Shown here piece by piece: positions 28,081 to 28,134 of a DNA stretch of 31,491 nt. Position numbers and translations under genes: made by a program. The stretch lies in the NCBI RefSeq assembly GCF_003334255.1, contig NZ_QOWU01000059.1. The stretch is one strand, 5' to 3'. Under the pieces are notes generated by a model, which worked only from the letters and a program-made list of their open reading frames with translations, did not search any database and was not told where the DNA came from. The stretch's first letter is position 1; every line of letters begins with the position of its first letter. The DNA comes from Escherichia coli (GTDB taxonomy: Bacteria > Pseudomonadota > Gammaproteobacteria > Enterobacterales > Enterobacteriaceae).

Positions 28081-28134
28081 ATATCAGGTGTCAAGAATGG
28101 AGAGTTCTCGCTCTCCATTCTTGACGCCTGATAT
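28081..28134. repeat. Near-perfect ~24-bp-arm palindrome (atatcaggtgtcaagaatggagag-ttctcg-ctctccattcttgacgcctgatat)
   Basis: Read directly: arms 28081-28104 and 28111-28134 are reverse complements with one mismatch. Located between ymgC and pdeG. Confidence 0.6.

Follow-up and report, generated by a model that had tools for sequence, protein, structure and literature searches.

The stretch of Escherichia coli DNA analysed here (31,491 nt, referred to as the window) carries the K-12-type bluF-ycgZ-ymgA-ariR-ymgC-pdeG-ymgF region. Between ymgC and pdeG, which are both encoded on the + strand, lies a 54-bp palindrome that overlaps none of the features in the window annotation. An inverted-repeat search confirmed what had been predicted from the letters, a near-perfect palindrome with 24-bp arms, one mismatch and a 6-bp centre; the arms are 24 nt each, 6 nt apart and 96% complementary. 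It lies where the original prediction had placed it, starting 94 nt past the ymgC stop codon (which ends at 27986) and ending 183 nt ahead of the annotated pdeG ATG (28318). The features are:

27738-27986, + strand: ymgC, the final gene of the ycgZ-ymgA-ariR-ymgC operon
28081-28104, + strand: left arm, ATATCAGGTGTCAAGAATGGAGAG; T28089 is the sole non-Watson-Crick position
28105-28110, + strand: centre, TTCTCG; the outer U and G pair in the RNA fold
28111-28134, + strand: right arm, CTCTCCATTCTTGACGCCTGATAT; G28126 stands opposite T28089, and TTGACG occupies 28121-28126
28318-29841, + strand: pdeG (ycgG), encoding a CSS-motif EAL phosphodiesterase

The arms pair at 23 of 24 positions, and the exception, T28089/G28126, is a G.U wobble in the + strand RNA and a C/A mismatch in the - strand. 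The RNA fold of the + strand is a hairpin of 25 pairs closed by the 4-nt loop UCUC. RNA folding, which had been suggested with the prediction as a check, gives -44.5 kcal/mol on each strand, with z about -11.5 (-11.6 and -11.2) and none of 200 shuffles equalling it; as DNA the palindrome folds with -25.8 kcal/mol. When a single arm was used as the query with up to 3 mismatches allowed, the two arms were the sole matches in the 31.5-kb window (0 expected from 100 shuffles), and the palindrome is the longest good inverted repeat there, with no other coming close. Elsewhere in the window, between bluF and bluR, a perfect 14-nt inverted repeat, ATACTTTGTACAAT-N10-ATTGTACAAAGTAT, occupies 25099-25136, about 120 nt past the bluF stop; its TGTACA half-sites recall the MerR-like MlrA/BluR operators, or it may be a 3' hairpin of bluF.

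To determine copy number, the 54-mer and a 136-mer were run as BLAST queries over 5,426 E. coli genomes and over the PLSDB plasmid and INPHARED phage collections. The palindrome is found at one locus in about 4,950 of the 5,426 complete genomes, while about 470 are without the region; the apparent "2 places" per genome are the two strands of one palindrome. INPHARED phages gave no palindrome match, and PLSDB matched in 14 E. coli records only, all of them non-mobilizable, up to 4.9 Mb in size and probably chromosomal DNA deposited under a plasmid label. The element is single-copy and specific to the E. coli lineage. The multiple genomic copies that would have marked it as a member of a known repeat family, a possibility raised in the original prediction, were not found, and an interspersed repeat family of the REP/BIME, ERIC/IRU or MITE kind was dismissed on the strength of the one locus per genome. 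The description of the arms as not REP-like was also borne out, since they are 46% G+C and carry no REP consensus. A search of Rfam 15 returned only two chance matches (E = 1.8 and 6.3), neither over the palindrome. A 50-aa open reading frame at 28028-28180 was rejected as a coding gene because a 4-nt indel shifts its frame in about 1,700 genomes (about a third). We found no description of the element in the literature, whether by its sequence or by ymgC together with a palindrome.

The seam between the ycgZ-ymgC and pdeG-ymgF blocks

The palindrome lies mid-way in a segment that is present solely where the ycgZ-ymgC block meets the pdeG-ymgF block, and the limits of this segment are taken from the ends of homology on its two sides:

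About 28057-28201, no strand assigned: seam segment, 145 bp, with the palindrome mid-way
28202-28317, + strand: pdeG-proximal block, shared with the DNA ahead of pdeG orthologues from other species

On the ymgC side, the divergent Escherichia lineage represented by loci L007-L009 (ymgC 88% identical in nucleotides) is similar to the window from the ymgC stop to about 28056 and unrelated from there on. Neither pdeG nor the palindrome follows ymgC in these loci, and the palindrome showed no significant similarity to the DNA 3' of ymgC in L007 (z = 0.26). What follows ymgC there (L007:365-913; also L008 and L009) is unrelated DNA and then genes for cytochrome b561-like, GAPDH-like and aldehyde dehydrogenase proteins. 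On the pdeG side, orthologues from other species have 72-80% DNA identity, and similarity in the spacer is seen only from about 28202 onward; in L082 the gene order is pdeG-ymgF-ymgD-minE, without the ymg operon. Counterparts of 28202-28317 are found at L082:2386-2499, L084:2404-2432 and L086:552-576, with the core TGGATATTT..TCTACCATGCT. Judged by its conservation, this block is probably the real control region of pdeG, a promoter or leader, separate from the palindrome.

YmgC is almost confined to E. coli. A scan for YmgC in a species-representative genome collection found no outgroup, and a scan of the same kind for AriR yielded 50 loci, none of them from Escherichia. In Citrobacter, ycgZ-ymgA-ariR-ymgC is followed by a LuxR-type gene, without pdeG and without a comparable hairpin. 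This gene encodes a 182-aa LuxR-type HTH protein, follows and overlaps ymgC (L019:4637-5185; also L020-L023), and has no counterpart in the E. coli window. We considered an origin of the palindrome as a pseudogene remnant of the Citrobacter gene, its 5' end (L019:4689-4731) resembling the left arm and centre, with later expansion of the arms. This was rejected: the likeness is marginal and limited to L019 (local alignment z = 2.8; 10 of 500 shuffles), it is absent in four sister species, and tblastn was empty. ycgG has been described as absent from other enteric bacteria (PMC3509220); full-length PdeG orthologues (P0140-P0167, about 68-71% amino acid identity) were seen in Citrobacter cronae, C. 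amalonaticus and others.

Several strain-specific rearrangements were noted around the spacer. In E. coli O157:H7 (L016) a 48-bp insertion, CTATGAACCGCCCCGGGTTTCCTGGAGAGTGTTTTATCTGTGAACTCA, lies in the conserved block upstream of pdeG (spacer about 1700-1830; window about 28250), and the annotated pdeG start has moved in line with it. In L004 and L017 (ST131/B2-type) and in L070 the 5' part of pdeG is missing from about window position 28276, and the annotation lists the gene as a partial pseudogene; both ymgC and the palindrome are retained. IS elements gather near the palindrome spot in single strains (L011:2915-3690, L005:309-1505, L076:420-1117 and L072:741-1969). An IS1 sits about 10 nt 3' of the palindrome in one strain, within the -10 hexamer of a promoter proposed for pdeG (see below); elsewhere an IS3 end adjoins window position 28102, with part of bluF through ymgC lost; and ymgC itself is interrupted by IS1 and by an IS3-family element in single strains.

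The palindromic shape and the position at a seam between gene blocks would suit the relic of a mobile element, be it a solo MITE, fused IS ends or an attC-like site. CCGC flanks the palindrome on both sides (28076-28079 and 28136-28139), and IS1 and IS3 have inserted inside it or within about 10 nt of it in single strains. A 4-nt flank match is, however, expected by chance alone. A single copy per genome across 5,426 genomes, phages without a match, plasmid records that are likely chromosomal, and the absence of similarity in the 50 related enterobacterial loci all argue against such a relic, and we give this origin next to no probability.

Allelic series and pairing of the arms

The 5,426 complete genomes contain the palindrome in a series of forms that differ in how well the arms pair:

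Allele K: the window sequence, with one T:G pair; 2,890 genomes exact
Allele K': G28126A, perfect at 24/24; 153 genomes
Allele K'': T28089C, perfect; 73 genomes
Other K variants: 1-2 differences from K; about 50 genomes
Allele M: three G:T pairs and one mismatch; about 135 genomes
Allele Q and close relatives: ATATCAGGGGGCAAACAGGAATGGAGAG-CGCTCG-TTTTCCATTCTTGACGCCTGATAT; about 1,700 genomes (513 exact and 1,193 near-identical), including O157:H7, O55:H7 and ST131

Compared with K, allele Q has 4 extra bases in the left arm only, which form a bulge, together with two mismatches and two G:T pairs. Its helix consists of 14 pairs, an internal loop and 8 pairs, and folds with about -29 kcal/mol as + strand RNA and about -22 kcal/mol as - strand RNA. 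The locus L070, from a divergent Escherichia lineage with ariR 92% and ymgC 94% identical to the window, has a Q-like and still weaker hairpin (-17.4 kcal/mol), so that the fold runs from -17.4 in L070 through about -29 in Q to -44.5 kcal/mol in K. An inner 10-bp repeat, GAATGGAGAG/YTYTCCATTC, is present in every allele with a spacing of 6 nt (8 nt in L070).

The K state is found in K-12, ATCC 8739, O104:H4 and O111, which we take to belong to phylogroups A and B1; O157:H7/O55:H7 and ST131 presumably represent phylogroups E and B2. Because the Q-like state is common to L070, O157:H7/O55:H7 and ST131, we infer that the imperfect form is ancestral, a polarity based on one outgroup locus (L070) and parsimony over these phylogroups. 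From Q to K, all four arm substitutions (G/G to T:G, G/A to T-A, and two G:T to G-C) and the 4-nt deletion improve pairing. Only 11 of the 144 substitutions possible in the Q arms (7.6%) do so, and four out of four by undirected mutation has P of about 3e-5, given this polarity. Among the 276 genomes with 1-2 differences from K, 226 have K' or K''; these are counts of genomes and not of independent events. The flanking haplotype is of the K-12 type in K'' and in one set of K' strains, and a second haplotype carries K' as well, a pattern read from the flanks that recombination could also produce.

Loss of the bulge, the G-to-T change at pair 11, the two T-to-C changes and both perfecting variants all install the base that the opposite arm would template. 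T28089 (pair 9) is not the templated base, which would be C, and two changes in the centre are likewise unexplained; a search within 1.5 kb found no donor for the Q-specific segment that would allow another template switch. Across proteobacterial genomes, template switching preferentially turns imperfect inverted repeats into perfect ones (PMC5941160). At the present locus, intra-arm template switching at replication (quasi-palindrome correction) would be the source of the arm changes. In the phylogroup A/B1 lineage one arm would have been corrected against the other, with the bulge lost, two mismatches repaired and two G:T pairs turned into G:C, and the last T:G would now be undergoing correction both ways in different strains.

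The near-perfection of the K-12 stem thus probably stems from mutation and not from functional need. It appears to be a recent, lineage-specific state produced by homogenisation of the arms, a point that the original prediction overlooked, and if so the length of the stem is no evidence for a special function. The same data would, however, describe ordinary decay if the perfect form were ancestral, and selection for pairing would yield the same direction as a mutational bias.

The two perfecting variants also bear on whether the palindrome acts as DNA, through a promoter or a bound protein. One candidate overlaps the right arm:

28121-28151, + strand: TTGACG (28121-28126), 19 nt, TATTTT (28146-28151); promoter proposed for ycgG/pdeG (PMC3946193)

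It was proposed from genomic SELEX, which located both a peak of RpoD holoenzyme and a site for H-NS between ymgC and ycgG (PMC3946193). Its -35 hexamer falls in the right arm, and in the left arm the reverse complement of 28089-28094 reads TTGACA, so the arms hold mirrored hexamers that could serve as the pdeG -35 or as a protein-binding site. A sigma-S ChIP-seq region that spans ymgC and the spacer, and the retention of the inner 10-bp repeat in all alleles, are consistent with such a control site. On the other hand, a consensus scan found no promoter on either strand, 19 nt is a poor spacer length, the ancestral-type Q allele does not keep the proposed -10, the conservation upstream of pdeG in other species begins only beyond the palindrome, and the one-arm 4-bp indel moves the outer half-sites. 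In addition, the K' change turns TTGACG into the consensus -35 TTGACA, and the K'' change makes its mirror on the other strand, TTGACA, weaker; arm-to-arm correction can account for the two changes together, and selection for promoter strength cannot. We regard a DNA-level control site as distinctly unlikely. The site for a dimeric regulator that had been named as a candidate survives in part: binding to the full 24-bp arms is unlikely because the outer half-sites shift by 4 bp between alleles (about a third of genomes have 4 extra bases and two mismatches in one arm), and a protein on the inner 10-bp repeat is possible.

The 3' end of the ycgZ-ymgABC message

A very stable stem at the downstream end of an operon could be taken for a terminator, and the stems of intrinsic terminators measure about 5-12 bp. 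On neither strand of the palindrome does a T-run lie within 2 nt of the stem, which is followed by CCCGCCTAAC on the + strand and by TGCGGACATA on the - strand. The consensus promoter/terminator scan, run over 27600-28500 on both strands, called no terminator-like site and no promoter at the element. The ymgC mRNA also behaves like transcripts without a Rho-independent terminator, in that it is not polyadenylated by PAP I, which has been linked to the absence of such a terminator (PMC1636475). Finally, ymgC and pdeG run in one direction, which leaves no opposing gene whose transcript would need an end here. The "strong bidirectional terminator" put forward originally does not hold up against these results, and we consider any canonical intrinsic (or bidirectional) terminator or insulator very improbable. 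Nearer to the ymgC stop lie two smaller structures:

28012-28068, + strand: two small hairpins right after the ymgC stop, H1 (28012-28036) and H2 (28039-28068)

H2 leads into the U-rich CTTTCTTATTAT, and 28036-28069 is identical in 13 of 13 aligned E. coli sequences; H1 varies slightly among alleles (e.g. CACCATG/CATCATG/CACTATG). As an intrinsic-terminator-like candidate H2 is weak, and it went uncalled in the consensus scan.

ycgZ-ymgABC has been reported as a single polycistronic mRNA (PMC3509220). Rho-dependent transcripts of E. coli end right after stable U-less stem-loops that shield them from PNPase and RNase II, and a mild excess of C over G is found downstream of such ends (Dar & Sorek 2018, PMC6061677). 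The palindrome has the sequence and fold expected of such a protective structure, being a stable stem-loop without a U-tract on the sense strand shortly past the last stop codon, and the 50 nt directly after the stem hold 12 C versus 7 G. The sense-strand position in the 3' UTR, the unpolyadenylated ymgC mRNA and the Dar & Sorek pattern together lead us to favour, among the candidates first listed, the "RNA processing or stability element". On grounds of position and analogy we tentatively read it as a U-less 3'-UTR stem-loop that would block exonucleases at the end of the ycgZ-ymgABC mRNA, and not as a special regulator. Transcribed on the sense strand as the distal 3' UTR of the operon, the element would fold into the 25-bp hairpin without a U-tract. 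The hairpin alone would not end transcription; its effect would be on PNPase and RNase II, the 3'-to-5' exonucleases that trim a Rho-terminated or read-through transcript and that would be halted at the stem. Such a block would fix and stabilise the 3' end of the operon and keep it apart from pdeG with its own downstream control region.

Speaking against an exonuclease-blocking hairpin are the spread in stability across lineages (-17 to -45 kcal/mol), the genomes that are without the region, and H1 and H2, which are better conserved and may be what actually forms the 3' end. In the Term-seq data of Adams et al. no 3' end is tabulated from 1,203,751 to about 1,218,600, the operon being poorly expressed under those conditions; the SMRT-Cappable-seq supplements (Yan 2018) do not mention these genes, and a literature search linking ymgC with bicyclomycin found nothing. 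We propose the two parts together, mutational perfecting and an exonuclease-blocking 3'-UTR hairpin, with corresponding reserve.

A strong rival, nearly as likely as the exonuclease-blocking hairpin, is that the palindrome has no function and maintains itself. It would then be a fold-back or filler left when the two blocks were joined, sharpened by template switching that outpaces divergence of the arms, any effect on RNA being incidental. The position at the seam, the wide variation of hairpin strength by lineage and the general model of PMC5941160 all suit this reading. The arms are 81-94% identical and the flanks 89-96%, which makes the arms the faster to change, with an excess divergence of only about 2-fold that is not significant. 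Nor is there a covariation signal: among ten distinct alleles 94.2% of cells pair, which shuffles equal, and no pair is changed on both sides relative to the commonest type; pair 15-59 alone shows UG, CG and UA. Both perfecting variants exist although T:G is already a legal RNA pair. Against an absence of function, the hairpin is retained in every seam-bearing lineage including L070, and a stable stem in transcribed sense-strand DNA must affect RNA ends, neither of which proves selection. An attempt to infer the strand from G.U wobbles was dropped, the legal transition mismatches numbering 5 for the + strand versus 3 for the - strand.

In read-through RNA the 25-bp helix would be an obvious substrate for RNase III, which needs roughly two helical turns; the 25 continuous pairs of the RNA fold exceed that length and satisfy the expectation of an unbroken helix of about 20 bp or more. 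In a processing site of the lambda sib type, a cut in the read-through helix would expose the upstream mRNA to decay and uncouple pdeG. If pdeG starts at 1,217,329 in MG1655, as we assume, position 1,217,246 lies about 100 nt downstream of the palindrome. This position is listed as a putative RNase III-dependent site, "ymgC-ycgG intergenic", with 41 reads in the rnc mutant versus 0 and 1 in the wild type (Gordon et al. Table S1). Among the sites that Gordon et al. validated are some whose hairpins extend into the following gene's promoter and arise solely in transcripts that read through. Besides its offset from the palindrome, the listed site has very low reads and is unvalidated, and the ancestral allele has an internal loop in the helix. 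We find an RNase III processing site unlikely. There is a similarly slim chance that the element is a fold-back scar of the fusion between the BluR-controlled ycgZ-ymgABC and pdeG-ymgF that was later recruited as a sib-like RNase III/exonuclease switch. If that were so, read-through from the blue-light/cold-induced operon would form the helix, its cleavage would set the stability of the ymgABC message and the co-expression of pdeG, and strains with imperfect, near-perfect and perfect helices would differ measurably in ymgABC-pdeG coupling.

In annotation, the labels terminator, repeat element, small RNA and small ORF should be avoided for the locus. More generally, an unusually long perfect stem may be a product of arm-to-arm correction and is not necessarily a sign of function. 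In mutation research, the locus offers a natural, datable quasi-palindrome series in thousands of strains, from imperfect through near-perfect to two alternative perfect forms. For biofilm and c-di-GMP regulation, the element marks the place at which transcription running on from ycgZ-ymgABC into pdeG would be halted or its RNA processed, and, as natural alleles of different helix strength already exist, an effect on the ymgABC-pdeG boundary is cheap to test.

Comparison with known systems

The element is real and unannotated, and is best filed under both U-less 3'-UTR stem-loops and quasi-palindromes corrected by template switching. With the U-less 3' stem-loops of Rho-dependent transcripts (PMC6061677) it shares a stem-loop 3' of the last gene, the lack of a U-tract, a mild excess of C over G and the absence of an intrinsic terminator nearby. 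It differs in that those stems have lengths like the stems of intrinsic terminators, whereas the stem of the palindrome is 24-25 bp, with a putative protective role. Intrinsic terminators resemble it as stem-loops after a stop codon, and the palindrome lacks both their U-tract and their short G+C-rich stem. REP/BIME elements are likewise intergenic 3'-UTR palindromes that possibly stabilise the upstream mRNA; the palindrome is not a member of this family, being single-copy, 46% G+C, without the REP consensus and much longer.

The lambda sib site and the read-through RNase III sites at aceE and pflB (PMC5371410) also have a long helix 3' of a gene that overlaps the proposed -35 of the next gene and would arise solely in RNA arriving from upstream; for the palindrome, the one weak data point is offset by about 100 nt and cleavage is putative. 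The quasi-palindrome mutation hotspots of the Ripley model, such as those in E. coli thyA and rpsL, are imperfect inverted repeats that lose their differences toward complementarity (genome-wide pattern in PMC5941160), and the palindrome resembles them further in its clustered multi-base changes in one arm and in the presence of both corrections of the last mismatch. In contrast to those hotspots, it is seen as natural polymorphism over thousands of genomes and not in a reporter assay, and its T28089 is untemplated.
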